DNA of 62,007 nt, from positions 1 to 62,007 of IMG/VR virus record IMGVR_UViG_3300024979_000006; one strand, given 5' to 3'. Position numbers and translations under genes: made by a program. The notes beneath the pieces are model-generated. The model ran no database searches. It was not told the origin of the DNA and was given only the letters and a program-made list of their open reading frames with translations. Every line of letters starts with the position of its first letter. Position 1 is the stretch's first letter. Positions 17,348 through 30,996 of the stretch are shown piece by piece. This stretch comes from a virus. Lineage: Duplodnaviria > Caudoviricetes.

Positions 17348-17797
17348 ATGATTACTAAACGAGACTGGCCCACTTGCCCGCGTGGTGATTGGATGCTTAT
17401 TTATTACGCTAAAACGCATCCAGAAAACAAGAGGGAGTTATCGCTGGCTAAAGGACTGTGCGCTAACACAGTCCGACATTTACTGACTGATCCACGTAGC
17501 CTGGCTGCTATAGATAACGCAATTGCGTATGGTCGAGGTGAGACCGAGTATGTTAATGAGACTGATGATATTAGTATCAGCTATCCCCCGCTTGCGTATG
17601 CTGTTATTAATAGTGGTGCGGCTATTACTATTATGATTGTTACTATTGCCGCGTATGTTATGGCGGCACCGGCGGTTTATGTTATGGCGGCTTCTTATGT
17701 TATGGCGGCTTTTTATATCGTTTATGCGACTATGGCTGTAATAAAAAAAAATCGACTCGATACCGCGAATATTTGCCGCGAGGTTTTGAAATTATGA
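17348..17797 (+). CDS. Paralog 1 of Ala-rich family (hydrophobic variable segment)
   Basis: RGDWML.YYAKTHPEN...CANTVRHL...AIAYGRGE...TANICREVLKL. Confidence 0.85.
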   Translation: MITKRDWPTCPRGDWMLIYYAKTHPENKRELSLAKGLCANTVRHLLTDPRSLAAIDNAIAYGRGETEYVNETDDISISYPPLAYAVINSGAAITIMIVTIAAYVMAAPAVYVMAASYVMAAFYIVYATMAVIKKNRLDTANICREVLKL

Positions 17798-18369
17798 AAG
17801 CAAAGAACAAATTAAAACGGTTAAACGCGTGTTCTGCCGCTATCGAATGGGTAGGTGAACGAACCATTGAAGAAGCCTGGGAACAATGCGAACGTGGTGA
17901 TTGGATGCTCTTGTATTACGCCAAAACGCATCCAGAAAACAAGAGGGAGTTATCGCTGGCTAAAGGACTGTGCGCTAACACAGTCCGACATTTAATGATT
18001 GATTCACGTAGTCTGGCTGCGGTGGATTACGCAATAATGTACGGGCGTGGTGAAGTTGAATACGATCCGTTATATGCCGCTTACGCCGCTGACGCCGCTT
18101 ACGCCGCCGCCGCCGCTTACGCCGCCGCCGCCGCTTACGCCGCCGCTTACGCCGCCGACGCCGCTGACGCCGCCGCTGACGCCGCCACTTACGCCGCCGC
18201 TTACGCCGCTTACGCCGCCGCTGACGCCGCCGCTGACGCCGCTTACGGCGCCGCTTACGCCGCTGACGCCGCTTACGCCGACGCCGCTGACGCCGCTTAC
18301 GCCGCTTACGCCAAAACAAAAAATAGACTCGATACCGCGAATATTTGCCGCGAGGTTTTGAAATTATGA
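17794..18369 (+). CDS. Paralog 2 with Ala/Tyr/Asp low-complexity repeat
   Basis: ATG 17794 coupled to the upstream TGA; LNACSAAIEW...WEQCERGDWML...(AAYAADAA)n. Confidence 0.85.
   Translation: MKAKNKLKRLNACSAAIEWVGERTIEEAWEQCERGDWMLLYYAKTHPENKRELSLAKGLCANTVRHLMIDSRSLAAVDYAIMYGRGEVEYDPLYAAYAADAAYAAAAAYAAAAAYAAAYAADAADAAADAATYAAAYAAYAAADAAADAAYGAAYAADAAYADAADAAYAAYAKTKNRLDTANICREVLKL
18076..18312. repeat. GCC/GCT/TAC/GAC low-complexity repeat
   Basis: gccgcttac / gccgctgac units. Confidence 0.95.
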
Positions 18370-18560
18370 AAAACAAAATTGTTCAAGTTGGGCTTGCGCC
18401 TGATGTTTATGCCTTGTTGCAACACAATGCTGACTTGCAACAGATTAGCGTGTCAAATTACGCGAGAATCATCTTGTCACAGACGTTAAAAACTGAATCC
18501 AGGGTAACACAAGGGTTCGGTCGAATAAGCCCACCAGCACAGGAGGACTCTCGATTATGA
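18366..18560 (+). CDS. RHH-like small DNA-binding protein
   Basis: MKNKIVQVGLAPDVYALLQHNADLQQISVSNYARIIL; ATGA-coupled at both ends. Confidence 0.6.
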   Translation: MKNKIVQVGLAPDVYALLQHNADLQQISVSNYARIILSQTLKTESRVTQGFGRISPPAQEDSRL

Positions 18561-18988
18561 AAGAATTTACTAAACGAGACTGGCCCACTTGCCCGCGTGG
18601 TGATTGGATGCTTATTTATTACGCTAAAACGCATCCAGAAAACAAGAGGGAGTTATCGCTGGCTAAAGGACTGTGCGCTAACACAGTCCGACATTTACTG
18701 ACTGATCCACGTAGCCTGGCTGCTATAGATAACGCAATTGCGTATGGTCGAGGTGAGACCGAGCATGTTGATGAGACTGCTGATATTAGTATCGGCTATC
18801 CCGCGCTTGCGAATGTTATTATCGTTACTGGTGCGGCTATTACTATTACGACCGTTACTATTGCCGCGTATGTTATGGCGGCCTCGTATATTATGGCGGC
18901 ATCGTATATCGTTTATGCGACTAGAGCTGTGATAAAAAAAAATCGACTCGAAACCGCCAATATTTGCCGCGAGGTGTTGAAATTATGA
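18557..18988 (+). CDS. Paralog 3 of Ala-rich family
   Basis: 18567-18763 is identical to 17352-17548; AGGAGG RBS. Confidence 0.85.
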   Translation: MKEFTKRDWPTCPRGDWMLIYYAKTHPENKRELSLAKGLCANTVRHLLTDPRSLAAIDNAIAYGRGETEHVDETADISIGYPALANVIIVTGAAITITTVTIAAYVMAASYIMAASYIVYATRAVIKKNRLETANICREVLKL

Positions 18989-19080
18989 AAGCAAAAGGTT
19001 TTACGCACGACAACGTGAATAATAAAAGCGTCGATGCGTTAAAACGAATGCAAAACAGGGGTCATTTGGTATTTTTATAA
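18985..19080 (+). pseudogene. 31-aa ORF, possible internally deleted phage adenine MTase remnant
   Basis: MKAKGFTHDNVNNKSVD + ALKRMQNRGHLVFL resemble, from memory, the N- and C-termini of phage Dam-like MTases. Confidence 0.35.
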
Positions 19081-19187
19081 TATCGCCGCCCCTCCTGTCC
19101 ATAAACCTGCGTTCTACGTTTTTTTTTACGTTCCTCAATGCGCCGGATATCCTCCGGCGTAAAATCACTCGGTTTTAGTGTTTTCAT
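19062..19187 (-). CDS. Small basic protein (41 aa)
   Basis: GGAG RBS; MKTLKPSDFTPEDIRRIEERKKKRR... Confidence 0.5.
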   Translation of the reverse strand: MKTLKPSDFTPEDIRRIEERKKKRRTQVYGQEGRRYYKNTK

Positions 19188-19231
19188 TCAGTATCTCCAG
19201 CCTACGCTGTAATGTGCGCCTGGGTCGTTAT

Positions 19232-19726
19232 TCATTTTCCATATACCTCAAATCTAATTTTATCGTTATTACATTGTTCAGTATGCCTGAGTGTAAAATC
19301 ATTACTAATGATCGGAAAAAATCTTACTACGGTTGATAATCCCGGACAATACTCATTATCAATACGAGTTAGCAAAATCATGTCAGCGTAGTACATGGCT
19401 TCACGATAAATGCTTTCCCCTCCGACGATGTAGACGTCACGATAAAAACTCTTAGCACATACCATTAACGCTTCCTCGTGACTATTGACGAATAATACAC
19501 CGTCACGATTACGACCAAATCTTTCATTACTGGCTATTACAACGTTTAATCGATTCGGCAATGGTTTACGCCCCAATGAATCAAACGTGCCACGTCCCAT
19601 GATGACCGCATGTCCGTCTGTAATTTCTTTGAATCGTTTTAAATCTTCTGGTATGTGCCACGGTATTTTACCGTCCATACCTATTAAATTATTTTTATCA
19701 CATGCTGCTATAATTGATATTCTCAT
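19232..19726 (-). CDS. folA: Dihydrofolate reductase
   Basis: IG.DGKIPWHIPEDLKRFKEIT.GHAVIMGR.TFDSLG.KPLPNRLNVV, YIVGGESIY. Confidence 0.95.
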   Translation of the reverse strand: MRISIIAACDKNNLIGMDGKIPWHIPEDLKRFKEITDGHAVIMGRGTFDSLGRKPLPNRLNVVIASNERFGRNRDGVLFVNSHEEALMVCAKSFYRDVYIVGGESIYREAMYYADMILLTRIDNEYCPGLSTVVRFFPIISNDFTLRHTEQCNNDKIRFEVYGK

Positions 19727-19727
19727 G

Positions 19728-21200
19728 TTAAACCGCCATAAATGCTTTAATAAATTGCGCTGCGACCTGTGGGACTATTGCATTACCGTACCCTTTCAAA
19801 CGCATCACACGGGCTTCTTGCGTGTTGTCTGGATCGCTGCTATGCACCACTCCATGGGGAACCCCATCAACCAGCGGCTTAATGCCGGGTTTAATTGGCC
19901 TGTACTTGTTGTCTCGGCAATAGAGCCAGTCTGGATTAATCCAAGTTTGCACCCCGGATGATTCGACGTTAAGGCTATCGCTTGGGTTTGTAGGTGAGTC
20001 GATTTCTCCATCGGACGGCCTGATGTTCTTGGTGTTGCCCATCCTGCCAATGTCGTCAACTGAGCCGTTATGTCCAGCCTGTCCGTAGATAGCTTCCCGT
20101 TCCGAATGCGACCTCCCGAGTAACCACCCTTGTGATCCGTTGCCGATGTTGTCGGCCACCCAGTACAATCGTTGTCTGATGTGCGGGGCACCCGCGCTGT
20201 GTGCTCCCAATACTGTAATCCCGAAGGTGTAGCCTTCTTCTTCCATTGCTGACTGTAAATCATCGGTCCAACTTGACTGGTTTGATGCTTCAAATTCTCG
20301 GCTAATTTGTCCGATAGCGTTTGAGATTTCTGTCTGCGCTGATTCATTATCCCAGTTGATACTTCCAGTATCTTCTGTTCCCCCCACGTATTCATCATTA
20401 CATTCAAGGCATAAATAACTACTCTCGTATTCGTTTTTAGATAACCAATCGTGTTGTCTATCCTGTCCAATGATGGTGCGTTCCAAGCCCTCGGCGTTTC
20501 CAAATCGAAAGGTATCGCTGTTACTTCGCATAATCCTTTGTTTATTATCTCTTGAACCCAATCCCCCGTTATATCCGATTCCATCCCGCGCTCTTTCGCC
20601 CGATTGATTGCCACATTCGCTAATGCTTTCCCCCTGTTTTTCAGCCGCCATGCCTTGTATTCTTCCGACGATATTTCTTTCCTGGCCTGTTTCTTTTCCC
20701 GATAAGACTTGTTGCAAGGATTGCATATTTTCGCCACATTCCCTTTCCCATAGCGAGAGTATTCTGAGATAGGCTTGTCTATTTTGCAGCGATTGCAAAT
20801 TTTCGATTTCAGTTCGTAACTTTGGCTGTCTAATTGCGGCGCCGACTTGCTCACCGAAGATAACGGGGAAATTGCACTGCTTAACAATCTCGATAAAGTG
20901 CGGCAACAAGTGTCGTTCGTCGTCTTTTCCCTTCCCGGCTCCGGCAACACTGAAAGGCTGACAGGGAAGGCTTGCTGTACAGACTGGTCTTGAATCATCC
21001 CACCCGGCGAGTCTGAGAGCGTAAGACCATCCCCCGATTCCCGCAAAGAAGTGATGTTGTCTAAATCCGGCGAGTTCTTCTGGTCTAACATCAGTAATTG
21101 ATCGTTCATCTACATACCCATTTGCTATTATTTTCATTTTTATTAATTCCCTAAGCCAAGCCGCCGCTTTGGGGTCAAATTCGTTATAATAAGCCCACAT
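19728..21200 (-). CDS. C5-cytosine DNA methyltransferase alpha chain with ~185-aa in-frame insertion
   Basis: FFAGIGG (I), PCQPFS (IV), FGEQV (VI), GAPHIRQRLY (VIII), RLKGYGNAIVPQVA (X); motif IX lies in the overlapping frame. Confidence 0.9.
   Translation of the reverse strand: MWAYYNEFDPKAAAWLRELIKMKIIANGYVDERSITDVRPEELAGFRQHHFFAGIGGWSYALRLAGWDDSRPVCTASLPCQPFSVAGAGKGKDDERHLLPHFIEIVKQCNFPVIFGEQVGAAIRQPKLRTEIENLQSLQNRQAYLRILSLWERECGENMQSLQQVLSGKETGQERNIVGRIQGMAAEKQGESISECGNQSGERARDGIGYNGGLGSRDNKQRIMRSNSDTFRFGNAEGLERTIIGQDRQHDWLSKNEYESSYLCLECNDEYVGGTEDTGSINWDNESAQTEISNAIGQISREFEASNQSSWTDDLQSAMEEEGYTFGITVLGAHSAGAPHIRQRLYWVADNIGNGSQGWLLGRSHSEREAIYGQAGHNGSVDDIGRMGNTKNIRPSDGEIDSPTNPSDSLNVESSGVQTWINPDWLYCRDNKYRPIKPGIKPLVDGVPHGVVHSSDPDNTQEARVMRLKGYGNAIVPQVAAQFIKAFMAV
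19805..21109 (-). CDS. Overlapping-frame ORF: HNH-like endonuclease fused to the MTase beta chain
   Basis: KICNRC..CNPC Zn ribbon and SLDRIDNTIGY..TNTRVV...LN nuclease motif, followed by GWPT...GQLNPALSRWLMGFPMEW (motif IX-like); true start uncertain. Confidence 0.8.
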   Translation of the reverse strand: MNDQLLMLDQKNSPDLDNITSLRESGDGLTLSDSPGGMIQDQSVQQAFPVSLSVLPEPGREKTTNDTCCRTLSRLLSSAISPLSSVSKSAPQLDSQSYELKSKICNRCKIDKPISEYSRYGKGNVAKICNPCNKSYREKKQARKEISSEEYKAWRLKNRGKALANVAINRAKERGMESDITGDWVQEIINKGLCEVTAIPFDLETPRAWNAPSLDRIDNTIGYLKTNTRVVIYALNVMMNTWGEQKILEVSTGIMNQRRQKSQTLSDKLAENLKHQTSQVGPMIYSQQWKKKATPSGLQYWEHTARVPRTSDNDCTGWPTTSATDHKGGYSGGRIRNGKLSTDRLDITAQLTTLAGWATPRTSGRPMEKSTHLQTQAIALTSNHPGCKLGLIQTGSIAETTSTGQLNPALSRWLMGFPMEWCIAAIQTTRKKPV

Positions 21201-21209
21201 AAAATCTCC

Positions 21210-23330
21210 TTAAAATATCGGTTGTAACGCTAACATAAAACCCTTCTTTTTCGCTGTGCGTTTTTCTTGAATACCTAATCGACGCAAAACTTTAGCCACA
21301 GCATTAACGTCCATTTTCGTTGTGTGACCCCATCCACATTCAGTCAATATATCCGTGCATGTATAGAGTTTGCCGTGATCGAGTATCGTATCCAAATCAA
21401 ATTTTGAACGCATGGCATCCTCGATATGATCAATTTGTGAGTGTTTTAAATGGTGATGATTTATCATTTCGTCCATTTCAGCATCCGGCCACCACTGATC
21501 ACCCGCTAAATACAAACCCCATATTTCCGCCCATAATTGTTGCATATCGACAGAATGAAACGGATTTGTACCTATTATTTGCAACGGAAAAAATCGCCGG
21601 TTCCCGGTATCATCCACCAAAAATCGTGACTCGTTGACACTAGCGAAAAACGATGTCCGGCGCCGAAACTTGCACGGTAAACGGTCGTAGGGCAAGCGGA
21701 TCTCATCGACACAGGAGGACAGAAAACCTTTTAACCGGGCAATATCTGATTTTTTAAATGTACCGTCCAGTTCGCCCAATTCGCATATCCAGGCTGATAC
21801 TGCCGCTTTACGTGAATCTTTATTCTCGGTGTCCAGCGTGATGTTATCTATCACATATTCATTGTATTCTGGCGGCACCAGTGAACGAATCCAGGTCGTT
21901 TTCATCCGACCCTGACCGGATTGAAAAATCAGCACCGCTTCAAATTTTGGGACTTTGTGTACTATCGGTGATGATTCCCCCGCATCCATGGCTGCTACGC
22001 ATTGCACCAGCCACATACGTAACAATCGATTGCGGTATTCGACGTTATTAATATCGACCAGCACGGTATTATAAAAATCGTTTAATCGGCTCACATTGTC
22101 CCATGGTTTACCAGTAATAAAATCCTTGATGGGATTTACAACCTTGTTCATTAACAACGCGGTTATGCGTTCGGCTGTTTCTATCGGCACCTCATTAATT
22201 GCCAGCAACGATTTAATTTCTTGTAATTTTCCGTTGTCGCTGATGTCATTGATTACATTTTGATTAGCCGGGAAATCGATGCAATGTTTTTTCAACAGTT
22301 CATCGTAATAATACGTAATGCCATAATGTTTCAGTATACATGTCAGATTTAATGTCGATGCTTGCGCTTTGCCTCGCTTACTTCGATCAGGAATATCTGT
22401 TTCAGACAGCCGCATATTAAACGGCATATATTCGCCTTCCACGGTGCCGAATATTTCAGCCGGGTTTACCTGTAGACCTTTCTTTGGATTAATCCAGCCG
22501 TTACGCTGTGCTTTGGCGAATACCGCGCGGTGATCAGTACGGTCCCCGGTAAATGTATTCCAACGCCACATATCGTCTGGGTTATATTTATCGGATTTTT
22601 TGGACCATGCGTCCCATAATGCAAAACCGGCATCGCCCAGGCAGGCTAGATCCTGCCCAACACTGATCCAGGTTACTCGGTCGTCTGCTGAGATATGGCA
22701 CAACGCTGATTCCAGTTCACTAAGTGTCTCGTCTGTAACCTCCGAGACAAGCATGTTTTGCTGTTTTGAGTGTTGCGACAGCTCCGGGTACATTGGTGTC
22801 AGGTTAGGGACTAGATCAACGTAATTACCTAGCGAATGCTGACATTCGTAGATTACACCACGGACCGAACCGAAATAATACGTTTGCGATAACGTAAATG
22901 ATTCATGTGCTAATATGCCACCAAACGCGCCATTTAAACGCGCCATTAACTCTCTCCGTTGAGATGGTACGGTTTCCGCTGACAATGGAGCCAGGACGCG
23001 CCAACGTGGTTTTTCGGTCGTGTGACTTGGCGATGTGTAAACCAACGCATAGATACCGGCCAGATTGAGACATTGCACCGCAGTATCAACGGATACCTCG
23101 CCGCCATCGTAATCCCCTTCAAGCCCAGATATAGACAGCACGTTTGCGTCGTGACGGTATGACCAAGCTTCGGTAATCTGATTACCGAATGTAGCTAGTT
23201 TAATTAACGGTAATTCAGATTTTTCGTTGAATACCGCAGGATTAGCACAGTGCTGGTATAGCTGCTCCCAGGTTACATCATATTTTTCTAATGTATTCGC
23301 TTTGACAGTTGGGAAGATGGTTACTTGCAT
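21210..23330 (-). CDS. Primase (AEP-like + PriCT-2) fused to VirE/VapE-type helicase
   Basis: GDYD and YTSPSH..KPRWRV; DDRVTWISVG...WDAWSKKSDKY; QSGQGRMKT Walker A, WICELGEL, FLVDDTGNRRF. Likely start ATG 23330 (track gives 23384). Confidence 0.9.
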   Translation of the reverse strand: MQVTIFPTVKANTLEKYDVTWEQLYQHCANPAVFNEKSELPLIKLATFGNQITEAWSYRHDANVLSISGLEGDYDGGEVSVDTAVQCLNLAGIYALVYTSPSHTTEKPRWRVLAPLSAETVPSQRRELMARLNGAFGGILAHESFTLSQTYYFGSVRGVIYECQHSLGNYVDLVPNLTPMYPELSQHSKQQNMLVSEVTDETLSELESALCHISADDRVTWISVGQDLACLGDAGFALWDAWSKKSDKYNPDDMWRWNTFTGDRTDHRAVFAKAQRNGWINPKKGLQVNPAEIFGTVEGEYMPFNMRLSETDIPDRSKRGKAQASTLNLTCILKHYGITYYYDELLKKHCIDFPANQNVINDISDNGKLQEIKSLLAINEVPIETAERITALLMNKVVNPIKDFITGKPWDNVSRLNDFYNTVLVDINNVEYRNRLLRMWLVQCVAAMDAGESSPIVHKVPKFEAVLIFQSGQGRMKTTWIRSLVPPEYNEYVIDNITLDTENKDSRKAAVSAWICELGELDGTFKKSDIARLKGFLSSCVDEIRLPYDRLPCKFRRRTSFFASVNESRFLVDDTGNRRFFPLQIIGTNPFHSVDMQQLWAEIWGLYLAGDQWWPDAEMDEMINHHHLKHSQIDHIEDAMRSKFDLDTILDHGKLYTCTDILTECGWGHTTKMDVNAVAKVLRRLGIQEKRTAKKKGFMLALQPIF

Positions 23331-24874
23331 ATCTGGTTCACCCGGTCGTTTATTAGAGTTATGTAATCGGGATTTAATTCGCACAGAATCGAAAATCTGT
23401 TATGTTTGGCGGCAACGCCGCCCACTGTACCGCTGCCTCCGAATGGATCAATAACGGTTCCGAATACCGGACATCCTGCAAGTATGCAAGGCTCGATTAA
23501 ATCAGGTGGGAAGGTGGCGAAATGTGCACCCTTGTAAGGTTTTGTGGTTACTGTCCATACGGATCGTTTGTTTCGTGTTTCAGCGGGTTCGGGTAAATCC
23601 GCTTCACTTAAGCCGGTAGTTGAATTTTTTAAGTTTTCTTTCGTTCTAAAGTTATTTTCTTTGGAATTGTAACCTAACTCTCTATTACGATTTACCCCAT
23701 TAGGTCTACGTTTTACCGCTTTCATATTACCGTTAGTTTTTCCAGGTACACGGCTACTACCCGTTTGATTCTCAATATTTTGAGACAATCGCGCAATACT
23801 TGCGTCTGCCAATGGTTCACCTATCGCATCCGAATCAAAATAATACTTAGGCTTCTTGCTTAACAGGAAAATATATTCGTGCGCCTTGGTGCAGCGGTCT
23901 TTAACGCTCTCTGGCATCGGGTTTGGTTTGTGCCAAATAATATCTTGTCTCAAATACCATCCGTCGGCACGTAACGCAAAGGCAAGTATCCACGGAATAC
24001 CTATCAGGTCTTTGTTTTTTACGGTTGGTATGGTACACTGTGGCTTAACATAGGAGTGATTAAACCATGAAGAGACAAGTAAACAATACCCGTAAGTGCA
24101 TCGAGTGCAGTTTAGAAGTTCCTCGCAAAGTAATGCGGTGTCCTGATTGCAATAAAAAGTTTCTGCAACTGCGCCCAACATACTCTCGTACCGAAGAGCA
24201 TAAGAGAAAAATGAGCGAAGTGACGAAAGGAAAGCCAAAACAGCATCGCTCGGCTTCTGAAAACCCTGAAGTGGCGGTAAAGATTCAGAATTGGTGGACA
24301 GAAGAACGCCGTGAAGCTGCTCGACAACGTGGATTGCGTTTTGCACTTGATCCAGAATGGCGGTTAAAGATAGCCCTTTCTGTTTCTGGGGCAAGCAATC
24401 CTCGGTGGGAAGATGGTCGATCAGGAAAAGCATATTCTCCTGGATTTGCCGACAAAGTTCGTGAGCTTGTTCGAGAACGCGACGGGAATCAGTGCACCCA
24501 ATGCGGTTCCACAAAACACCTTTGCGTACATCATAAAGACTTTGAGAAAGTGATCCATGACCTTGACAATCTTGTTCTCCTTTGTCGTAAGTGTCATACG
24601 ATTGAACACGTCGAGCACTCGAAGAGTAAGAGTCTGAAATATTCAACCACAACGTCCCATCATCCCGCAGTATTCGCTTAACCTCTGCAAATACCTTAAC
24701 CATGTTGGCGATATACAACTCTGGTGTTTCCTCAAGTCCAATTTGATCATCATGTCCATAATCACGCAGTCCATAATACGGCGGCGATGTAACACAGCAA
24801 TTAATACTTTTGTCTTGAATTTGCCGCATTGATTCTAGGCAATCTCCCGCTAATACTTTGACAAAATTATTCAT
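23321..24874 (-). CDS. N4/N6 DNA methyltransferase (beta class) with ~200-aa in-frame insertion
   Basis: VTSPPY, KDLIGIPW..AFAL.ADGWYLRQDIIWHKPNPMPESVKDR, HFATFP, DPFGGSGT. Confidence 0.92.
   Translation of the reverse strand: MNNFVKVLAGDCLESMRQIQDKSINCCVTSPPYYGLRDYGHDDQIGLEETPELYIANMVKVFAEVKRILRDDGTLWLNISDSYSSSARRVQSYDTYDKGEQDCQGHGSLSQSLYDVRKGVLWNRIGCTDSRRVLEQAHELCRQIQENMLFLIDHLPTEDCLPQKQKGLSLTAILDQVQNAIHVVEQLHGVLLSTNSESLPPLQGFQKPSDAVLAFLSSLRSFFSYALRYESMLGAVAETFYCNQDTALLCEELLNCTRCTYGYCLLVSSWFNHSYVKPQCTIPTVKNKDLIGIPWILAFALRADGWYLRQDIIWHKPNPMPESVKDRCTKAHEYIFLLSKKPKYYFDSDAIGEPLADASIARLSQNIENQTGSSRVPGKTNGNMKAVKRRPNGVNRNRELGYNSKENNFRTKENLKNSTTGLSEADLPEPAETRNKRSVWTVTTKPYKGAHFATFPPDLIEPCILAGCPVFGTVIDPFGGSGTVGGVAAKHNRFSILCELNPDYITLINDRVNQICK
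24012..24056 (+). promoter_or_regulatory. Candidate promoter and RBS for the antisense HNH gene
   Basis: TTGTTT-16 bp-TACACT with TG extension (24031-24039); AGGAG at 24052-24056, 10 nt before ATG 24067. Confidence 0.55.
24067..24681 (+). CDS. HNH endonuclease (Zn ribbon + NUMOD3-like + HNH), antisense within the MTase
   Basis: CIEC..CPDC; TEEHKRKMSE; G..NPRWEDG; RERDGNQCTQCGS...VHH.D......DNLVLLCRKCHTIEH. Confidence 0.92.
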   Translation: MKRQVNNTRKCIECSLEVPRKVMRCPDCNKKFLQLRPTYSRTEEHKRKMSEVTKGKPKQHRSASENPEVAVKIQNWWTEERREAARQRGLRFALDPEWRLKIALSVSGASNPRWEDGRSGKAYSPGFADKVRELVRERDGNQCTQCGSTKHLCVHHKDFEKVIHDLDNLVLLCRKCHTIEHVEHSKSKSLKYSTTTSHHPAVFA

Positions 24875-24875
24875 A

Positions 24876-25193
24876 TCACTTCACCGACATGAGCTTTTCA
24901 AGTGCTTTTTTCCTCAATTCGTCGCTTATTTTTTCGGCCCTGGGATCTTTGGCAACCAACCCTTGTGCTATTATTTCCAGATCACCTAACCGTAACGCTT
25001 CGCCCATTATCGCCCGACGTAAATTACTCACAGTACCAAAATACTTGGTTATCAACGTAGCACTGACGCCACTGTGATCACTAATCTGTTTGCGGGTAAT
25101 GTTTCGGTATCCGTGTTCCCTTGATACAATTAACGCATGTCCGAGTAGCTGGCGCTTACGGTCCACCGGATTCATTCTTTGCTGTTCGTTCAT
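24876..25193 (-). CDS. TetR-like HTH regulator
   Basis: RKRQLL..AL..SREHGY.NITRKQISDHSGVSATLITKYFGT. Confidence 0.75.
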   Translation of the reverse strand: MNEQQRMNPVDRKRQLLGHALIVSREHGYRNITRKQISDHSGVSATLITKYFGTVSNLRRAIMGEALRLGDLEIIAQGLVAKDPRAEKISDELRKKALEKLMSVK

Positions 25194-25664
25194 TTAAAAT
25201 TCCCCTGTTGTGAATGCTGCATAACCGCCAAGCGACGTAACAACATCGCTCCATTTTTTTTGCGCTTGAGTGTGTTTATCGTTTTCTGAATATTTCCAGC
25301 CGGCGCATTTAACTTCCAAGCTGACAAACTGGCCGATTACCATGCCCGAATGAAATGGTGTTATTGTTATCGGGCGTATACCGATTAAATCGTGTGATTT
25401 AATTTTCTGATTCATGGCGGCTGAATCATTAGCTAAACCGAACCTGACGAAATTGCCATTTTCCATCATGCCAGCACCGCGGTTATTACGCCATAAACGC
25501 CACCCACGTTTAGATGCTTCCAGCCTGATCTCCGTTTGAATACCCGACTCGCCGGTTTCGGCGCTACCGGAAATAATATCGCACTCGGCAATTAATAACC
25601 GGCGTAACTCGACCACCGCATCAGCGGAAATTCTGTATTTATGCGCCCATTGACTGATTAACAT
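25194..25664 (-). CDS. VRR-NUC-type nuclease
   Basis: ESGIQTEIR...LWRNNRGA...VRFGL...SHDLIG...FVSLEVK...AQKKW...LGG.A. Confidence 0.85.
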   Translation of the reverse strand: MLISQWAHKYRISADAVVELRRLLIAECDIISGSAETGESGIQTEIRLEASKRGWRLWRNNRGAGMMENGNFVRFGLANDSAAMNQKIKSHDLIGIRPITITPFHSGMVIGQFVSLEVKCAGWKYSENDKHTQAQKKWSDVVTSLGGYAAFTTGEF

Positions 25665-25900
25665 TTAGGCACCCGCTTGTTTTTGAACACATCTGATTTT
25701 TTAATAGTTTCCATAAAATCAGATAGTCGTTTATTTTTAAACTCGTCGGGTTCGGGTATAGTGCGTATTTTAAAAACGGTTGTTAATTCAGGCAATTTGA
25801 AAACATGATGGCCGTTTTCTACCGAGTAGTCTCCAGGTTGATTGCCCATCGCCAAGTGTATCTGGTTTGTCAGATATTTAAGCTGTTCTTTTTTGTTCAT
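25658..25900 (-). CDS. Hypothetical protein
   Basis: Likely start ATG 25900 (MNKKEQLKYL...), just after the upstream stop. Confidence 0.55.
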   Translation of the reverse strand: MNKKEQLKYLTNQIHLAMGNQPGDYSVENGHHVFKLPELTTVFKIRTIPEPDEFKNKRLSDFMETIKKSDVFKNKRVPKC

Positions 25901-25904
25901 AAAT

Positions 25905-26642
25905 TTATATCTCGCAAAATGTGCAACCTGACGTTGCGTTTCGTTCTTGTCCTGATTTTGATGTCCAAACGGACTTGCCAATTTGATTTTCTAATCGTAA
26001 AACAATTTCATATCGTTCAGCACCTACGGCATCTTGTTTGAAATCACGTTCTTTGTTTGCATCACCTGACGCCAGGCATGGGAAACAACCGACTCGATCT
26101 GAACCTTGTGAATATAGTGGATTGTATCGTCCGTTTAATTTTTCCAATACTTCTTCAGTTGTCCATTCAACAATCGGAAGTCTAAACATAACTCCACGTT
26201 TTTCTAAATATTTAGGAAACTCCGATTTCATAAAATCATGGGGTGCGATTAATTCTTCATTCAACCGCCCATAATATCGAGTTGCTCTTGCACTCGATTC
26301 TCCTGTTCTGACTCCAATCCAAACCTCAAAACCATGGCCTAGAATTAATGACAGATCAGCATAATAACGTTTAGCGGGTCTGATTTTTAAATCTCGTGTG
26401 CAAAATCGACTCCGCATGAGCGGAAATCGTTTGCGCTTCAAAACTTCTTCTTCAACCGATGACACGTTGGTGGTGACTATCGGCACGTTATAATGTTGTC
26501 GCATCCATTCGATGTGTTGGTATGTTAATGGATGTTCCCAACCTGTATCGTTAAATAAACAATGGACATCGCGATCTGTTTCTAAGGCAAGTTCCAAACA
26601 GCATTGCGAATCTTTACCGCCCGATAATGGTACTATTATCAT
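25905..26642 (-). CDS. PAPS reductase-like (adenine nucleotide alpha-hydrolase) protein
   Basis: SGGKDS PP-loop, DTGWEHP, RFCT..LK..P, GVR..ES..R, NPLY.QG.DRVGCFPC, C-terminal CxxC. Confidence 0.85.
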   Translation of the reverse strand: MIIVPLSGGKDSQCCLELALETDRDVHCLFNDTGWEHPLTYQHIEWMRQHYNVPIVTTNVSSVEEEVLKRKRFPLMRSRFCTRDLKIRPAKRYYADLSLILGHGFEVWIGVRTGESSARATRYYGRLNEELIAPHDFMKSEFPKYLEKRGVMFRLPIVEWTTEEVLEKLNGRYNPLYSQGSDRVGCFPCLASGDANKERDFKQDAVGAERYEIVLRLENQIGKSVWTSKSGQERNATSGCTFCEI

Positions 26643-29160
26643 TTATAATCCTTGCTATTAATTCATCTGCTTCTTTACGGGGTAACGCTTGCGCCGATAG
26701 CACATCTACGCCAAACGTTAGGTAAAATTGCCGCTGTGCTCGTGGTATGTCAGTCATCCCTGCCGCCCAGGTAGCTATTGCATCGCGTAGTTTATCCAGT
26801 GACGCAAGATGTTCTCTGTGCCGTTTGTCAATCGAGTTTACGATAACTTGTGTTGCGCCCCAGGGATACGTGGGTTCACCCCTAGTTTTATCGATATTGC
26901 CTTGCAGTTTGGCAATAAATTCGGGTGTCAGTAATTGCAGGTCCCCGTCTACATATTCAGGTGCTATACGACTAACAGGTGTTGCTGTATGACCGCAAAA
27001 CGGACACGTCATACCCTGAATACGCTCATAAACAGCGGTACATTCCGGGCAGGTTTTTACCTGAATTATGTCAGTGGGTGCAGAACGTCCCGATTTTTCG
27101 CGGGAGTCCAGCGTCCATTTAATTATTTTATCCGGTAAACCATGTCGCAACAGAATATTATTCACATGATCATTAATTATTCCACAGTTGTGAACGAGCA
27201 ATCCATTTGCAGTGTACCTTTGTAAAGTCCCTGCATTGATAATGTCCCATACTTCCCTTTTGGTTTGCAGGAAGGCGTATACCATCGCTGGATTATTTCC
27301 TCGTCTGTATAAATACGGATCAATCTGTTCAATGTCGAATCTGCGTAACGAATATGCGGATATTTTTCTCTGAAGTCGATAAAACGTTCTCGACACATCC
27401 CGTTTGATCTTCGAGTATTGTTTTGTTGTTTCGGTATAGTAACCCAATGAATATTCCCAGGTTCGTAATGACCGTTGTTGTTTATTCTGTCTAATTGAAT
27501 ATTTCGATTTTCTGGAATACCTAAATTTTTTGCTATCCAATGCGCGGCTTCGTTCGCAGACTCGAATTTGAATAATATCCCTCGTCCACCGTAATCCTTC
27601 CACCTGATGTTGTTTAAATTTTGACAACGATCTTGTTGCGCTTGACACCTTTGATATAGCCATTTTGGTACTGTTACAGGTTCTCGCTTGTTGCAATTTT
27701 GGCAAGCCTTTGTATTCGGACGTTTCCTCATATTGTGGTATAAGTGCATAAATTTGTGATTGCAGTTTTGACAACATACCTCTACTTTCAAACGATCCGA
27801 ACTTCCTTCTGTTTTGTTGGATATTATTATCAACGAACCGAATTGGAGTCCTACCAATTCCGGTATTAATAATCGAGAGCTGTCTAATAGCCGCTTCATA
27901 GAATGTTTTGAATCCTTCATTTGTCATAACCTCATGGTCTAATGTTGCAGTTAAACCAGAGTATGTAATTGTTGATTTTATACCCTGGCATATTGCACCT
28001 TGATGGCTTACGAATGATACGCCGTCCCAAACTTTATGGTCAAGTGTGATATTCTCAATATTTACTAAACCAACATCTGTTAATATTTTCGATCCTCTAG
28101 CAATACAGGTTTTACCATCCTTGCGACGCAACGCCCTGCCCATTTGTTGACGCGCCAATGCGAGGGAGAACGTGGGGCGTGTCATACTCACGACTTCGAT
28201 GGCCGGTAAATCGAATCCTTCACCGAACAGATCCACATTTGTGAGCTGTTTCAGATCACCTCGGCGCAACCTGGCGATACATGCCAACCGGTGCGCATCC
28301 GTGGATCGTGAACTAACCATTTCCGCAGGTATCCCCTTCTGCCTGAACGCGGCGGCTTGATCCTCGGCGCTTTCGATGTCTACGCAAAACGTAACGCCTA
28401 TCTTTCCGGCGGCGGTTTTTAAATATTGATCAACGGTATTGCCGTAAATCTTTTTACTCTTGTGCATGGCATCGCGCAAACCAGGTTGTGAATAATCACC
28501 ATCGGCGCCAAGTTTTACGGTACTTAAATCCATGTCGTCGGTTTGTGGCGCATAAATCATGTAATCCGACAGAAACCCACGACTAATTAAATCGCGCATC
28601 CCTGGCGCTTGTAGCATGACATCAAATAAACCGTCAGCATGACGCCCTAAGCCACGCCCGTCTGCCCGTTGCGGTGTAGCGGTAACGCCCAAGCCCTTGG
28701 CATTGGGAAACATATTAATAGCGCGGCCCCACTTATTTTTAACCAGAAGGTGATGGCACTCATCAAGAACCCACAAACCAACCTGTTTAAACCAACGATC
28801 AGCCGGATCCATCCGAATCAGCGTATCGACTCCAGCAACCGCGCATTGTGAATTAACATCGTAATAGGATCGTCCCGTTTCGGCCATGTGCAACTCGATA
28901 CATAAACCAATCACGTTTTTTGGTGCGATAACACGATGTCGGACACCATCGCGCGCCAACGCCAACGATATTTGTGAAACCAGTTCTTGCCGGTGAGCAA
29001 TCGCCACCGACGCACCTTGGAATTCGTGGATAATATGAGAAAAAATAACAGTTTTTCCAGATCCAGTCTCACTCACCGCACAAACGTTTTTATATCCTTC
29101 ATTCCAGGATTGATAAATTTCATCAACTAATTGTTGTTGAAAATCGAATAACTGAAACAT
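26614..29160 (-). CDS. SF2 (DEAH/RadD-like) helicase with intein
   Basis: TGSGKT, DECHH, TATP.RADG, LFGEGFDLP, QQMGRALR, C-terminal CPEC..CPFC. Confidence 0.93.
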   Translation of the reverse strand: MFQLFDFQQQLVDEIYQSWNEGYKNVCAVSETGSGKTVIFSHIIHEFQGASVAIAHRQELVSQISLALARDGVRHRVIAPKNVIGLCIELHMAETGRSYYDVNSQCAVAGVDTLIRMDPADRWFKQVGLWVLDECHHLLVKNKWGRAINMFPNAKGLGVTATPQRADGRGLGRHADGLFDVMLQAPGMRDLISRGFLSDYMIYAPQTDDMDLSTVKLGADGDYSQPGLRDAMHKSKKIYGNTVDQYLKTAAGKIGVTFCVDIESAEDQAAAFRQKGIPAEMVSSRSTDAHRLACIARLRRGDLKQLTNVDLFGEGFDLPAIEVVSMTRPTFSLALARQQMGRALRRKDGKTCIARGSKILTDVGLVNIENITLDHKVWDGVSFVSHQGAICQGIKSTITYSGLTATLDHEVMTNEGFKTFYEAAIRQLSIINTGIGRTPIRFVDNNIQQNRRKFGSFESRGMLSKLQSQIYALIPQYEETSEYKGLPKLQQARTCNSTKMAISKVSSATRSLSKFKQHQVEGLRWTRDIIQIRVCERSRALDSKKFRYSRKSKYSIRQNKQQRSLRTWEYSLGYYTETTKQYSKIKRDVSRTFYRLQRKISAYSLRRFDIEQIDPYLYRRGNNPAMVYAFLQTKREVWDIINAGTLQRYTANGLLVHNCGIINDHVNNILLRHGLPDKIIKWTLDSREKSGRSAPTDIIQVKTCPECTAVYERIQGMTCPFCGHTATPVSRIAPEYVDGDLQLLTPEFIAKLQGNIDKTRGEPTYPWGATQVIVNSIDKRHREHLASLDKLRDAIATWAAGMTDIPRAQRQFYLTFGVDVLSAQALPRKEADELIARIINDNSTIIGR
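27177..27920 (-). CDS. HNH homing endonuclease in an alternative frame inside the intein
   Basis: LVGLQFGSL.I, CCQNC..CQNC, RC.N.N...WKDYGGRGI, LDRINNNGHYEPGNIHW....QQNNTR; GAGGT RBS 8 nt before ATG 27920. Confidence 0.9.
   Translation of the reverse strand: MKDSKHSMKRLLDSSRLLIPELVGLQFGSLIIISNKTEGSSDRLKVEVCCQNCNHKFMHLYHNMRKRPNTKACQNCNKREPVTVPKWLYQRCQAQQDRCQNLNNIRWKDYGGRGILFKFESANEAAHWIAKNLGIPENRNIQLDRINNNGHYEPGNIHWVTIPKQQNNTRRSNGMCRERFIDFREKYPHIRYADSTLNRLIRIYTDEEIIQRWYTPSCKPKGKYGTLSMQGLYKGTLQMDCSFTTVE
27187..28107 (-). mobile_element. 307-aa intein in the helicase
   Basis: KT|CIARGSKILTDVGLVNIENI...LTATLDHEV...VWDIINAG...YTANGLLVHN|CGII; removal restores GKT-CGIINDHVNN. Confidence 0.93.
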
Positions 29161-29194
29161 TGTTAATTTACTCTCAAATAAATAGTGTGACGCA

Positions 29195-29260
29195 AGAATA
29201 CTGCATTAAAAAAATAATTGCAAATAATTATTGACTCTTGGGTAATTTATGAAATAAAAT
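29195..29260. promoter_or_regulatory. Back-to-back divergent sigma70 promoters
   Basis: Minus strand: TTGCAA (29218-23)-17-TATTCT (29195-200). Plus strand: TTGACT (29231-36)-18-TAAAAT (29255-60). Confidence 0.65.
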
Positions 29261-29299
29261 TTAGCCGTAGTTTAGATAAAATCAATAGGAGATAAAACA

Positions 29300-29902
29300 A
29301 TGTTACTGAAATTTGAAGTAGAAACAAATGAAGAATATGCAGTGAGAGATGCGCTAGATTTATTGCAGTATTTATGCAAAGAGTTTCCTAGATATGATGA
29401 CGAATACATCGTACTCAAACCAGAAAAACCCGCACCGGAACCTGAAGAAATTGCAATCCCAGGTCTCGATGTAGATTCTGAAGGTTTGCCATGGGACGCA
29501 CGGATTCATTCGTCGTCTAAAGCCAAGAACAAAGATGGCTCGTGGAAACGTATGCGTGGTGTTTCTGATGACGAGTTTTATAAAGTGGCGCAGGAGATAC
29601 GTGATACGCTATCAATATCTAATGATATAAACCCGATTTTTAGGGGTGAGTCTGGCGTATTGGATGAACCAAAACAATCTAACATCGACCCGTCAGAAAT
29701 ATTCAAACCGGCTGATGAACAACCAACACCAACCCCGACATATCTTGAACTCGTTTCGATTCTCGGCCAGGCAACTAAAGAAAACCGGATCGATAATACA
29801 AAAATTCAAGAAGCTGTTACTGGCGTCGGTTTGGCGGCGTTTACGCAATTGGCAGTTCGTATCGATTTAATTCCTGCGTTCATCACTAGATTAGGACTCT
29901 AG
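29300..29902 (+). CDS. Hypothetical replication-module protein
   Basis: AGGAG RBS; conserved-looking DSEGLPWDARIHSSSK..NKDGSWK..RGV. Confidence 0.8.
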   Translation: MLLKFEVETNEEYAVRDALDLLQYLCKEFPRYDDEYIVLKPEKPAPEPEEIAIPGLDVDSEGLPWDARIHSSSKAKNKDGSWKRMRGVSDDEFYKVAQEIRDTLSISNDINPIFRGESGVLDEPKQSNIDPSEIFKPADEQPTPTPTYLELVSILGQATKENRIDNTKIQEAVTGVGLAAFTQLAVRIDLIPAFITRLGL

Positions 29903-29904
29903 TC

Positions 29905-30996
29905 ATGGACACCAAAAAAGAATCGATAACCTATAGCAACCTGGCGCGTATGATGTCGTGCCTCGGTTCTGTAGATCTTATTCGAGAAAATACGATACCT
30001 GATACCGATAGAACAAATCGTGACGAGGGTATTGAAGCGCATCGTGTAGCTTTGCTGTTATATAACGAAACGCTTGAGAGTGCTAATGTTGAACAGGAAA
30101 TGATCGATGCTGCGCAAATTTATGTTGATGACATAAAACGTATCGAAAAACTTACAAACTGCCATGCGATTCTTGAAGGATTCCTAGCGGCGGCGACCTA
30201 TCATCCAGCACTTAAAGGCGTACCAGATGCGTGGTTGTTCGATAAGAAGAACAACACGATTTATATTTGGGATTTCAAATATGGGCATTCGTTTGTTAAT
30301 GAGTACCAAAACTGGCAATTAATTGGCGCGGCAATGGGCGCTTTGTCTAATTGCAATCATTCGACTAATCCAGCTATCGTACTAACCGTAGTACAACCAC
30401 GTTGTTATACAGGTAAGGGGCCTGTCAGACCATGGGTCACATCACAAAACGAACTGATTCCTTATTTTAGCAACGTGGTAAGCCGCATCAAAGCGTATTA
30501 TGAACCATTCTTAATACACGAATGTACAGTATCGCCGCTTTGTCGAAATTGCCCGGCTGGACACGTTTGTGATGCACTGTTGGACGCTTCTGCGTATGCC
30601 ATTCATCAGGCATACGATAACCTGCCCGTAGAACTGTCAGGCGATACATTGGGTCGTGAGTTGCAATCGTTAGAAGTTGCTGAATTGTTGCTCAAAGCTC
30701 GTATTGACGCATTGAAAAAAGACGCTGTTTATCGGTTAGAAAACGGCGAGCGAGTGCGTGGTTACGGTCTTGTAACTGACATGAGTCCGTTGCAATGGTC
30801 GTATGAGCAAGATACATTAATATCAATGGCCGAGTTACTTGGATTGGATGTTGTTAAGGTAGGTGTGAAAACGCCAACTCAGGTAAAAAACACAAAAGGG
30901 GTTGATCCCGCGTTAGTTGATTCATTAGCTGCGCGAGTACCAACCAAACCACAACTGAAACAGGATGGCGAAAAGTTATCGAGGATATTCAAATGA
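29905..30996 (+). CDS. Cas4-like PD-(D/E)xK exonuclease (DUF2800-like)
   Basis: C.GS, EG..AH, GVPDA, IWDFKYG, NWQL, VQPR, C.NCPA..C. Confidence 0.85.
   Translation: MDTKKESITYSNLARMMSCLGSVDLIRENTIPDTDRTNRDEGIEAHRVALLLYNETLESANVEQEMIDAAQIYVDDIKRIEKLTNCHAILEGFLAAATYHPALKGVPDAWLFDKKNNTIYIWDFKYGHSFVNEYQNWQLIGAAMGALSNCNHSTNPAIVLTVVQPRCYTGKGPVRPWVTSQNELIPYFSNVVSRIKAYYEPFLIHECTVSPLCRNCPAGHVCDALLDASAYAIHQAYDNLPVELSGDTLGRELQSLEVAELLLKARIDALKKDAVYRLENGERVRGYGLVTDMSPLQWSYEQDTLISMAELLGLDVVKVGVKTPTQVKNTKGVDPALVDSLAARVPTKPQLKQDGEKLSRIFK

Follow-up and report, generated by a model that had tools for sequence, protein, structure and literature searches.

A putative HNH-family homing element lodged in a dual-coding phage C5 methyltransferase gene and open in both of its reading frames

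The virus genome IMGVR_UViG_3300024979_000006 of the IMG/VR collection (Duplodnaviria; Caudoviricetes), analysed here over positions 1 to 62,007 of the record and referred to as the window, carries a C5 DNA methyltransferase gene which is coded in two overlapping frames, alpha and beta, and which contains an insert of 555 nucleotides without a stop codon in either. The insert is probably a selfish homing element of the HNH nuclease family, hidden out of frame in the manner of the ShiLan domain of a mycobacteriophage methylase, translated through, and riding on the nested beta open reading frame (ORF). The principle of an out-of-frame HNH gene in a phage methylase whose host frame is kept open is already published (PMC11855218; Arsenault, Gosselin and Gogarten 2025). 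New are the dual-coding host gene, a nuclease joined in frame to the nested subunit and lacking start and stop codons of its own, the presence of two further nested HNH genes in the same phage and, as the junction sequences lead us to infer, an element that carries a replacement for the beta segment it displaces.

A methyltransferase gene coded in two frames

The features of the locus are the following.

19728–21200, minus strand: alpha ORF, large chain of the C5 DNA methyltransferase, 490 residues with the insert translated through
21206–21211, minus strand: Shine-Dalgarno sequence AAGGAG for alpha, 5 nucleotides ahead of the alpha ATG
19805–21109, minus strand: beta-frame ORF, 434 residues, +1 relative to alpha
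20274–20828, minus strand: inserted element, alpha codons 125–309, 555 nucleotides, delimited by alignment to empty alleles and by stop counts
20829–20855, minus strand: 5′ flank with alpha motif VI (GEQVGAAIR) intact, its beta reading being a degenerate copy (SVSKSAPQ) of the empty-allele beta helix
20315–20824, minus strand: HNH-like nuclease domain, beta residues 96–265, recognised by PHROG families, relatives, an AlphaFold2 (AF2) model with a predicted local distance difference test (pLDDT) above 90 and fold matches to PacI, Gme HNH, McrA and Cas9 HNH
20714–20797, minus strand: zinc-ribbon part (CNRC...CNPC), beta residues 105–132, pLDDT above 90, matching Hpy99I at Z 5.0 over residues 100–138
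20402–20473, minus strand: conserved core SLDRIDNTIGYLKTNTRVVIYALN, with D215 invariant and Y223, N227 and N236 near-invariant
20264–20347, minus strand: 3′ element end and junction, beta helix of residues ~255–282 (...LSDKLAENLKHQTSQVG), a predicted alpha contact
19856–19900, minus strand: beta motif IX-like stretch GQLNPALSRWLMGFP, matched by phrog_31772 and within the predicted interface residues 404–431
19770–19793, minus strand: alpha motif X (GYGNAIVP), near-invariant alignment columns

The nature of the host gene is evident from alpha, which matches DNA_methylase in Pfam (8.7e-14) and aligns over residues 1–489 with positions 9–314 of the 327 in the profile of phrog_363, leaving about 175 residues extra. 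Alpha reads FFAGIGG, LPCQPFS, GEQV, HIRQRLYW and GYGNAIVP, which we take to be the named motifs of the C5 consensus. Motifs I–VIII and X lie on alpha and motif IX on beta, a split read from the sequence and from the methyltransferase families that match beta downstream of the nuclease, phrog_1008 over residues 256–371 and phrog_31772 over residues 390–423. Beta consists of a disordered N-terminal stretch of 95 residues, followed by the nuclease domain and then by the beta core with motif IX. In tblastn searches of 50,697 phage records, alpha matched 251 records and beta 215, all at less than 80% identity and in the same places but in different frames; a megablast search of the region against the phage collection gave no matches, and a viral-contig search with the single alpha protein as query gave no relatives. 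Both ORFs are annotated in phage K1H, as ORF29 ('C-specific methylase') and ORF28 ('Mte8-like'), the start of the latter lying 88 nucleotides after that of the former.

The beta frame was followed through 80 loci with an intact alpha N-terminal part, comprising 77 of the 80 fetched IMG/VR loci, the phage records L001 and L002, and the window, with an IMG/VR duplicate (L005), a near-copy (L011) and a truncated locus (L035) dropped. Alpha codons 41–120 contain no beta-frame stop in 75 of these loci, whereas the third frame is open there in only 4 of the 80 (11 versus 256 stops); in the distal part, which begins at codon 121 and ends 35 codons short of the alpha stop, 65 of 69 loci are open in the beta frame and none in the third (20 versus 684 stops). 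Beta is a long nested ORF across this methylase family, starting near alpha codon 30. The frame opens at about alpha codon 19–38 in most loci, often with M-[NST]-D-Q-L, which is alpha VDERSI read one base later and to which the window's beta ATG at 21109 corresponds; five loci open only at about codon 85–92, where a second recurrent start, MNDT, is found.

A comparable build is described for M.EcoHK31I (Lee, Kam and Shaw 1995, via PMC2836561), according to the available part of that source a heterodimeric C5 methyltransferase whose beta subunit is encoded inside alpha in another frame. Compared by description, the two systems share the nested beta ORF and the placing of motifs I–VIII and X on alpha and IX on beta, whereas in the window a nuclease domain is part of beta, whose frame is open along nearly all of alpha from about codon 30 onwards. 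The N-terminal 40–50 residues of the M.EcoHK31I beta subunit are needed for association with alpha (PMC2836561, in the part available), and the interface predicted for the window agrees with this, the helix right after the nuclease falling within it. The same text says that in M.EcoHK31I the target-recognition domain is on alpha. The description of beta as a 'specificity chain' in an earlier reading of this DNA (the original prediction, made from the sequence alone) is not supported; its placing of the insertion in a dual-coding alpha/beta C5 methyltransferase was right.

The methylase gene adjoins one for dihydrofolate reductase (DHFR; 19232–19726; Pfam DHFR_1, 8e-44), the ATG of which overlaps the alpha stop codon by one base (ATGTTAA, 19726–19728), and this overlap suggests that methylase and DHFR may be translationally coupled.

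The insert, its nuclease frame and its junctions

Aligned with empty relatives, alpha has 185–186 extra residues between GEQVGAAIR and SSWTDDLQ, just after motif VI, in agreement with the original prediction of an alpha insert of some 185 residues between GEQVGAAIR and WTDDLQ, and the insertion point is flanked by the invariant blocks GEQ..AI and GW.DDL. Empty alleles, to which that prediction had pointed as a check, make up 69 of the 80 loci, while at least 10 of the 120 alpha homologues listed (40–63% identical, 482–588 residues, aligned over the full query) have an insert at the same column. A nuclease homologue, 35–67% identical to that of the window, follows in the +1 frame right after alpha residue ~124 in L004/L005 (one contig), L006–L012, L016 and L017. 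In the window's insert, where the alpha and beta frames are both uninterrupted, the third frame is broken by 19 stops and the three antisense frames by 10, 3 and 8. DNA was compared for ten alleles, namely the window, L004, L006–L010, L012, L016 and L017 (L005 being excluded as part of the same contig as L004 and L011 as having the same sequence as L010), with the insertion site in diverged alleles placed by the tblastn coordinates of the nuclease. In all ten the nuclease region has no alpha-frame and no beta-frame stops, against 98 in the third frame (5–17 per allele) and 1–11 in each antisense frame. The two open frames are real and far from chance, and the claim that the element keeps two host frames open at once applies to every allele. 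That the second open frame stems from an assembly or frameshift error, from pseudogene decay or from chance is scarcely credible: ten independent, diverged alleles and the 80 family loci have the same two open frames, and the 98 third-frame stops of the nuclease region, like the 684 of the distal part, refute an artefact.

The two frames are not under the same selection. In a comparison of the window with L004 (558 nucleotides of insert in both), the nuclease frame has 114 of 185 residues identical, whereas the alpha frame has 73 of 186 and the third 78 of 185; the nucleotide differences at nuclease-frame codon positions 1, 2 and 3 number 52, 38 and 89. From these frame identities and this codon-position pattern it follows that the nuclease part is under purifying selection and that the nuclease frame is the one selected for its sequence, while the alpha frame of the insert is selected only for staying open and perhaps also for hydrophilicity. 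Hydrophobic residues amount to 30% of the alpha-frame insert and 41% of the rest of alpha, and AF2 models this insert with block means of confidence of 58–74 (residues 125–190) and 25–45 (residues 190–280), the core of alpha exceeding 90. Scanning metagenome contigs with an alignment of the alpha-frame insert gave 104 pattern matches, none of which was confirmed.

No signature of a self-splicing intron or intein is present in the insert, Rfam giving no matches at E ≤ 1 over 18500–30000 and Pfam no intein or Hint match in either frame, with DNA_methylase as the sole match in alpha. Were the insert a group I intron or an intein, splicing at the RNA or the protein level would leave both chains without it. 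The conserved site in a conserved gene and the scattered distribution described below are indeed those of introns and inteins, yet such an element is very improbable in view of these searches and of the anatomy of the insert. Of the 555 nucleotides, 510 belong to the nuclease domain (20315–20824) and the others to further beta coding, so that a ribozyme core could not be accommodated; an intron would have no need of the open alpha frame that all ten alleles maintain; and the alpha-frame insert is predicted to be disordered.

Read in the beta frame, the insert encodes CNRC...CNPC and SLDRIDNTIGYLKTNTRVVIYALN and continues without a stop into GWPT...GQLNPALSRWLMGFP. All the nuclease strings quoted in the original prediction, the CxxC pairs and the conserved core, are present, and the nuclease frame is the beta frame, which runs on without a stop into the motif-IX part as had been claimed. 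Endonuclease families of PHROG match beta residues 84–276 (phrog_3322 at 2.9e-26, phrog_1035 'endonuclease VII' at 6e-17 and phrog_3118 'HNH endonuclease' at 1.3e-11). The AF2 model of beta has a pLDDT above 90 over residues 100–310, is high again at ~410–430 and is poor in residues 1–95. Its top match in Foldseek is PacI (3ldy; E 6e-3, probability 1.00), followed by Gme HNH and Hpy99I, and VIA-align returns PacI (3m7k) at Z 7.3 (root-mean-square deviation 4.3, 95 aligned), Gme HNH at 5.7, Hpy99I and McrA at 5.0 and the HNH domains of Cas9 and ZRANB3 at about 4, with unrelated helical rows at Z 5.7–6.4 interspersed among the HNH rows. Hidden Markov models of PHROG match the motif to HNH nucleases, and the fold searches point to a likeness with them. 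An alignment of 138 sequences gives the consensus PSLD[RQ]ID..GY...N.R.V...LN, with N227, N236, C129 and C132 near-invariant and a CxxC pair also at 105–108. The domain is likened to PacI and other beta-beta-alpha-metal nucleases (3ldy/3m7k, 4h9d, 3fc3, 6ghc) by its best fold matches and by zinc-bound CxxC pairs; identity to this group is only 10–16% and Z only 5–7, and the catalytic residues of the window nuclease are putative.

Empty alleles have beta ...LQSSLESRLRA..VGSTLY... overlapping alpha FGEQV..AIKHGWLDDL, and the insertion point falls within this stretch. On the 5′ side, all ten occupied alleles keep alpha GEQV and have a degenerate beta reading (PLSSVSKSAPQ in the window), while on the 3′ side the element ends in all ten with a new beta helix (LSDKLAENLKHQTSQVG in the window, SASLQAALEARLKERL in L007), the alpha reading of which is meaningless (ISREFEASNQS in the window). 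This 3′ helix would appear to stand in for the piece of beta whose codons precede the insertion point in empty alleles. At the level of DNA, homology between the window and its closest empty alleles ends after ...GCAATTAGACA and restarts at GTTGG.CCGATGAT.

The nuclease lies about 95 codons into the beta-frame ORF, and in none of the ten alleles is there a stop before the beta core. Since no start belonging to the nuclease was found and no methionine is conserved between the nuclease domain and the 3′ helix in the ten alleles, the product is likely a single chain, the nuclease followed by the beta core. The nuclease–beta fusion of the original prediction stands in that one open frame runs through both parts, and has to be amended in that the nuclease is internal and not at the beta N-terminus. 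Programmed frameshifting from alpha into beta was set aside, without a search for a slippery site, as its product would lack motifs VIII and X.

Structure prediction adds a reciprocal relation between the two chains. The AF2 model of alpha is confident over residues 1–124, 310–355 and 475–490 and poor over 356–472; alpha is predicted to be disordered (356–472) exactly where beta encodes its conserved core, and beta to be disordered (1–95) where alpha encodes motifs I–VI. In the models, where one frame encodes folded protein the other encodes a low-confidence linker. A complex of alpha with beta residues 244–434 scored 0.87, against 0.00 for the best of three controls, a mark reached by 58 of 80 solved complexes and by 2 of 110 mismatched pairs; at least 72% of contacts are shared between runs, and the partner pLDDT is at least 65. 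Alpha and beta are accordingly placed together by the model, in line with the alpha/beta complex that the original prediction had envisaged, and are predicted to associate through beta residues 255–305 (the helix after the nuclease and the next hairpin) and 404–431 (motif IX) and, on alpha, through both edges of the insert (residues 123–124 and 308–310). Because single-chain C5 methyltransferases have been solved, this pass may come only from likeness to them.

We infer a course of events in which the element lodged at a fixed, highly conserved site after motif VI of the dual-coding phage gene and is not spliced out. Both products would be translated, beta from one of the candidate starts at 21109, 21091 and 20998 or from a non-canonical one near 20800–20812; alpha would read through the element as a hydrophilic, mostly disordered loop of ~185 residues, and the beta frame would hold a real gene, a zinc ribbon with a beta-beta-alpha-metal nuclease domain. 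Having no start or stop of its own, the nuclease would be made as part of beta, directly N-terminal to the alpha-binding helix. The 3′ end of the element would supply the replacement for the beta codons displaced by the insertion, the 5′ copy of the target would preserve the catalytic GEQV of alpha, and the methylase would stay functional as alpha with its loop and nuclease–beta. The nuclease would then cut empty alleles in co-infecting relatives, and repair would copy the element in.

Distribution, mobility and rival explanations

In a quick-search tree built from the N-terminal part of alpha (98 rows, 122 columns), the 18 insert-bearing rows require 13 state changes, of which well-supported branches force at least three; 2 of 500 label shuffles came as low. 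The rows nearest to the window by path are the empty alleles P0013, P0011, P0019, P0023 and P0021. Support for a disjunct distribution on the host-gene tree is moderate, because the alignment is short. In 112 fusion proteins (6216 pairs), identities of the nuclease part and the beta core are weakly correlated (Spearman 0.32), and discordant pairs reach 85% against 49% and 72% against 32% for nuclease part and core, respectively, a discordance to which unequal rates and poorer alignment of the core could contribute.

Searched alone against 1.84 billion representatives, the nuclease found 8547 proteins at E ≤ 1e-3 and 75 at E ≤ 1e-30. Among the best 150 representatives, 128 have at least 300 residues, with the domain typically starting 40–130 residues in, and 62 of these 128 match the motif-IX pattern; both nuclease and beta core are covered in 112 of the 150, and 12, shorter than 215 residues, seem to be free-standing genes or fragments. 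P0139 and P0181 correspond to the beta-frame ORFs of L008 and L010. One protein, P0162 (494 residues), has an alpha-like N-terminus (..AFYNEIDGHAAQW..) running on into the nuclease and may be a frameshifted form, a fused form or the result of a sequencing error.

Cultured phages hold relatives of the nuclease in 92 records, at 26–46% identity. The 40 listed rows are annotated 'endonuclease', 'HNH endonuclease' or 'hypothetical', with one carrying 'DNA polymerase I' together with 'endonuclease', and since none of these 40 cultured-phage matches stands under a methylase annotation, the arrangement is largely unannotated. In Klebsiella phage SBP (L001, locus 1132–2455) the relative (31% identity) is a separate gene immediately downstream of a homologous methylase, overlapping the end of the alpha/beta methylase by 11 nucleotides and lying in beta's frame, with stops between. 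A homing element is indicated by the scatter of insert-bearing alleles among empty ones and by the existence of free-standing nuclease relatives. Rhodobacter phage RcCWillis (L087, locus 1353–2522) was tried as a cultured insert-bearing allele and rejected, being empty with only ~18 extra residues. These extra alpha residues (EIFGKVAKPSRRNAATPPQ) stand exactly at the nuclease insertion site and may be the footprint of a lost element or a variable loop.

The closest precedent is the ShiLan domain, a 202-residue insertion in a mycobacteriophage methylase. According to the available text of PMC11855218, the host frame of that insertion has no stops, intron and intein features are absent, the distribution is disjunct, and an HNH endonuclease with a GTG start and a TAA stop lies in another frame; Pacc40 gp60 is a second case, with free-standing relatives adjoining the methylase in other phages (Tiff81/Sashimi). 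The window shares with it an HNH gene at a conserved site of a phage methylase, in a frame other than the open host frame and without intron or intein signature, an in-frame product predicted to be disordered or looping, a disjunct distribution, and a free-standing relative beside the methylase elsewhere (Klebsiella phage SBP here, Tiff81/Sashimi for Pacc40). Unlike the ShiLan nuclease, that of the window has neither start nor stop of its own and lies in frame inside a nested host ORF; two host frames must stay open and not one; and the host is a C5 alpha/beta methylase of metagenomic phages, whose cultured relatives infect Gram-negative hosts, in contrast to an actinophage. The two nucleases are likened by arrangement, not by sequence. 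The words cytosine, reverse, opposite strand and Escherichia are absent from the available text of PMC11855218, and beyond the ShiLan line of work (PMC11855218, PMC9957025, PMC12613952 and the dnaX-intein preprint) the literature, as far as its available texts extend, yielded no report of a hidden HNH gene in a C5 alpha/beta host. How a hidden HNH gene is translated is posed there as a question, with leaderless initiation suggested (PMC11855218, in the part available); in the window family, the nuclease would borrow the translation of the nested host ORF.

Other homing systems share part of this anatomy. The cyanobacterial dnaX intein has an out-of-frame endonuclease, as stated in the available part of the preprint (bioRxiv 10.64898/2026.09.14.751524). 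The window resembles intein and group I intron homing endonucleases in its conserved site and sporadic distribution and, in the dnaX case, in the overlapping frame, and differs from them in that no splicing element was detected and the host protein keeps the insert. T-even phages practise intronless homing, with free-standing HNH homing endonucleases next to the target gene and genes split by them. Like these nucleases, that of the window lacks an intron or intein, is tied to one conserved host gene and has free-standing relatives in cultured phages, whereas its gene is contained within the target gene and leaves it unsplit and uninterrupted.

Several observations weigh against a homing element with an active nuclease. 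Pfam gives no HNH family match in the beta frame or the insert up to E 1; the nuclease domain, compared by sequence with the PDB, found nothing better than a single row at chance level (E 0.83); and the fold-search Z values of 5–7.3 are in the middling range for VIA-align, though the HNH family recurs. The canonical catalytic histidine is missing: D-R or D-Q stands where D-H is usual, and the 138 aligned sequences share no conserved histidine anywhere in the domain, for which reason nuclease activity is not assured. The window has no Shine-Dalgarno sequence before any beta-frame start, and none with ATG, GTG or TTG near the CxxC pair; a methionine codon stands just before CxxC in 4 of the 10 alleles, the window not being among them. 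The replacement of the beta helix is read from protein-level likeness alone, and no target duplication is detectable in the DNA of the window compared with L013, L015 and L035. The tree is short (122 columns), with 55 of its 93 inner branches unresolved, and as no near-identical pair of an insert-bearing and an empty allele was found, recent homing is not directly seen. Finally, at least 112 clusters, formed at 50% identity, contain the fusion, whose nuclease part is better conserved than the core (mean identity 47% against 39%); this also fits a useful function that has been retained.

The missing histidine and the failure of Pfam to match an HNH family would suit an enzyme that has become inactive and persists as a decayed passenger, kept because clean removal from two frames is hard or as an extra DNA-binding module. 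This is improbable. Conservation is strong and biased to third positions in the nuclease frame, the AF2 model is confident, D215, Y223, N227 and N236 are invariant or nearly so, and the distribution is scattered. PacI, the best structural match, is likewise reported to have a tyrosine in place of the canonical histidine.

Another reading is a domesticated nuclease, in which the fusion docked on alpha serves the phage, in a restriction-modification-like role or by excluding competitors, with cutting directed or gated by methylase recognition or methylation and mobility past or secondary. Compatible with homing, this is unlikely but deserves more credence than a decayed passenger. The nuclease is fused in every allele without a stop before beta, it adjoins the predicted alpha-binding helix, with both insert edges of alpha (123–124 and 308–310) in the predicted interface, and the fusion is widespread (128 of the best 150 representatives reaching 300 residues and 112 covering nuclease and core) with its nuclease part the better conserved. 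The fusion is, however, imposed by the anatomy, since a stop anywhere would cut beta short, and hence does not testify to a benefit. The insert is scattered among close empty alleles, its site, flanked by invariant blocks, is of the kind typical for homing, and relatives of the nuclease are free-standing endonuclease genes. The same phage has two further, unrelated nested HNH genes, in one case antisense, whose host frames are likewise open although fusion is impossible for them. The original prediction had left open a choice between a passenger fusion and a nascent restriction-modification complex; for the latter part there is no direct support, and the scattered distribution, the fixed conserved site and the ShiLan precedent favour selfish homing. 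A bolder version, a long shot, would unite nuclease–beta and alpha in a single particle in which DNA recognition by the methyltransferase and the nuclease work jointly: a restriction-modification-like unit, minimal and self-mobilising, written in two frames of one stretch of DNA, whose cutting of empty alleles or of competitors' DNA is gated by the methylation that the particle writes. If true, the family, with its at least 112 clusters, would represent previously unrecognised phage-borne nuclease–methylase weapons and not mere parasites.

On the favoured reading of a translated-through homing element, one stretch of DNA meets three coding constraints, a folded nuclease, a stop-free and harmless loop in the other frame, and the replacement of a displaced piece of a second protein. 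The family thereby offers a natural test bed for the evolution of overlapping genes and for the tolerance of methyltransferases to insertions. Metagenomic phages commonly have the arrangement: at least 112 of the best 150 representatives stand for fusion clusters.

Further nested HNH genes and other overlaps in the window

Two more host genes of the window contain HNH ORFs in another frame, the extra residues of both having been measured by blastp against empty relatives.

23321–24874, minus strand: N6/N4 DNA methylase with ~173 extra residues (95–284) relative to Pseudomonas phage phiAH14a and no host-frame stops
24067–24681, plus strand: HNH ORF inside the N6/N4 methylase insert, 204 residues, matched by Pfam HNH (6.8e-5, above the cut-off) and by several PHROG HNH families
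26614–29160, minus strand: helicase (ResIII/Helicase_C) with ~284 extra residues (346–659) relative to Shewanella phage SppYZU01 and no host-frame stops
27177–27920, minus strand: HNH ORF in the +1 frame of the helicase, 247 residues, matched by phrog_374 and phrog_3377

The N6/N4 methylase case would be an antisense version of the hidden-HNH arrangement. This methylase matches 94 Mycobacterium phage records and may belong to the family of ShiLan gp65. Together with the C5 methyltransferase, the three nested-HNH loci account for 3 of the 7 pairs of stop-free runs in the window (at least 150 codons, overlapping by at least 400 nucleotides). The occurrence of three nested HNH genes in a single phage, the one in the N6/N4 methylase being antisense, suggests that homing by translated-through genes is a general strategy overlooked by annotation pipelines.

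Other overlaps in the window concern different genes. Positions 1–1301 hold three overlapping stop-free runs of 171–433 codons on two strands, which have only weak PHROG matches and to which no function is assigned. Three paralogous small ORFs on the plus strand (17348–17797, 17773–18369 and 18557–18988) have a common N-terminal part (..RGDWMLIYYAKTHPENKRELSLAKGLCANTVRHL..), the second and third having no match in PHROG, and in the middle one (17773–18369) a long repeat of the AAYAADAA type leaves several frames open on both strands.

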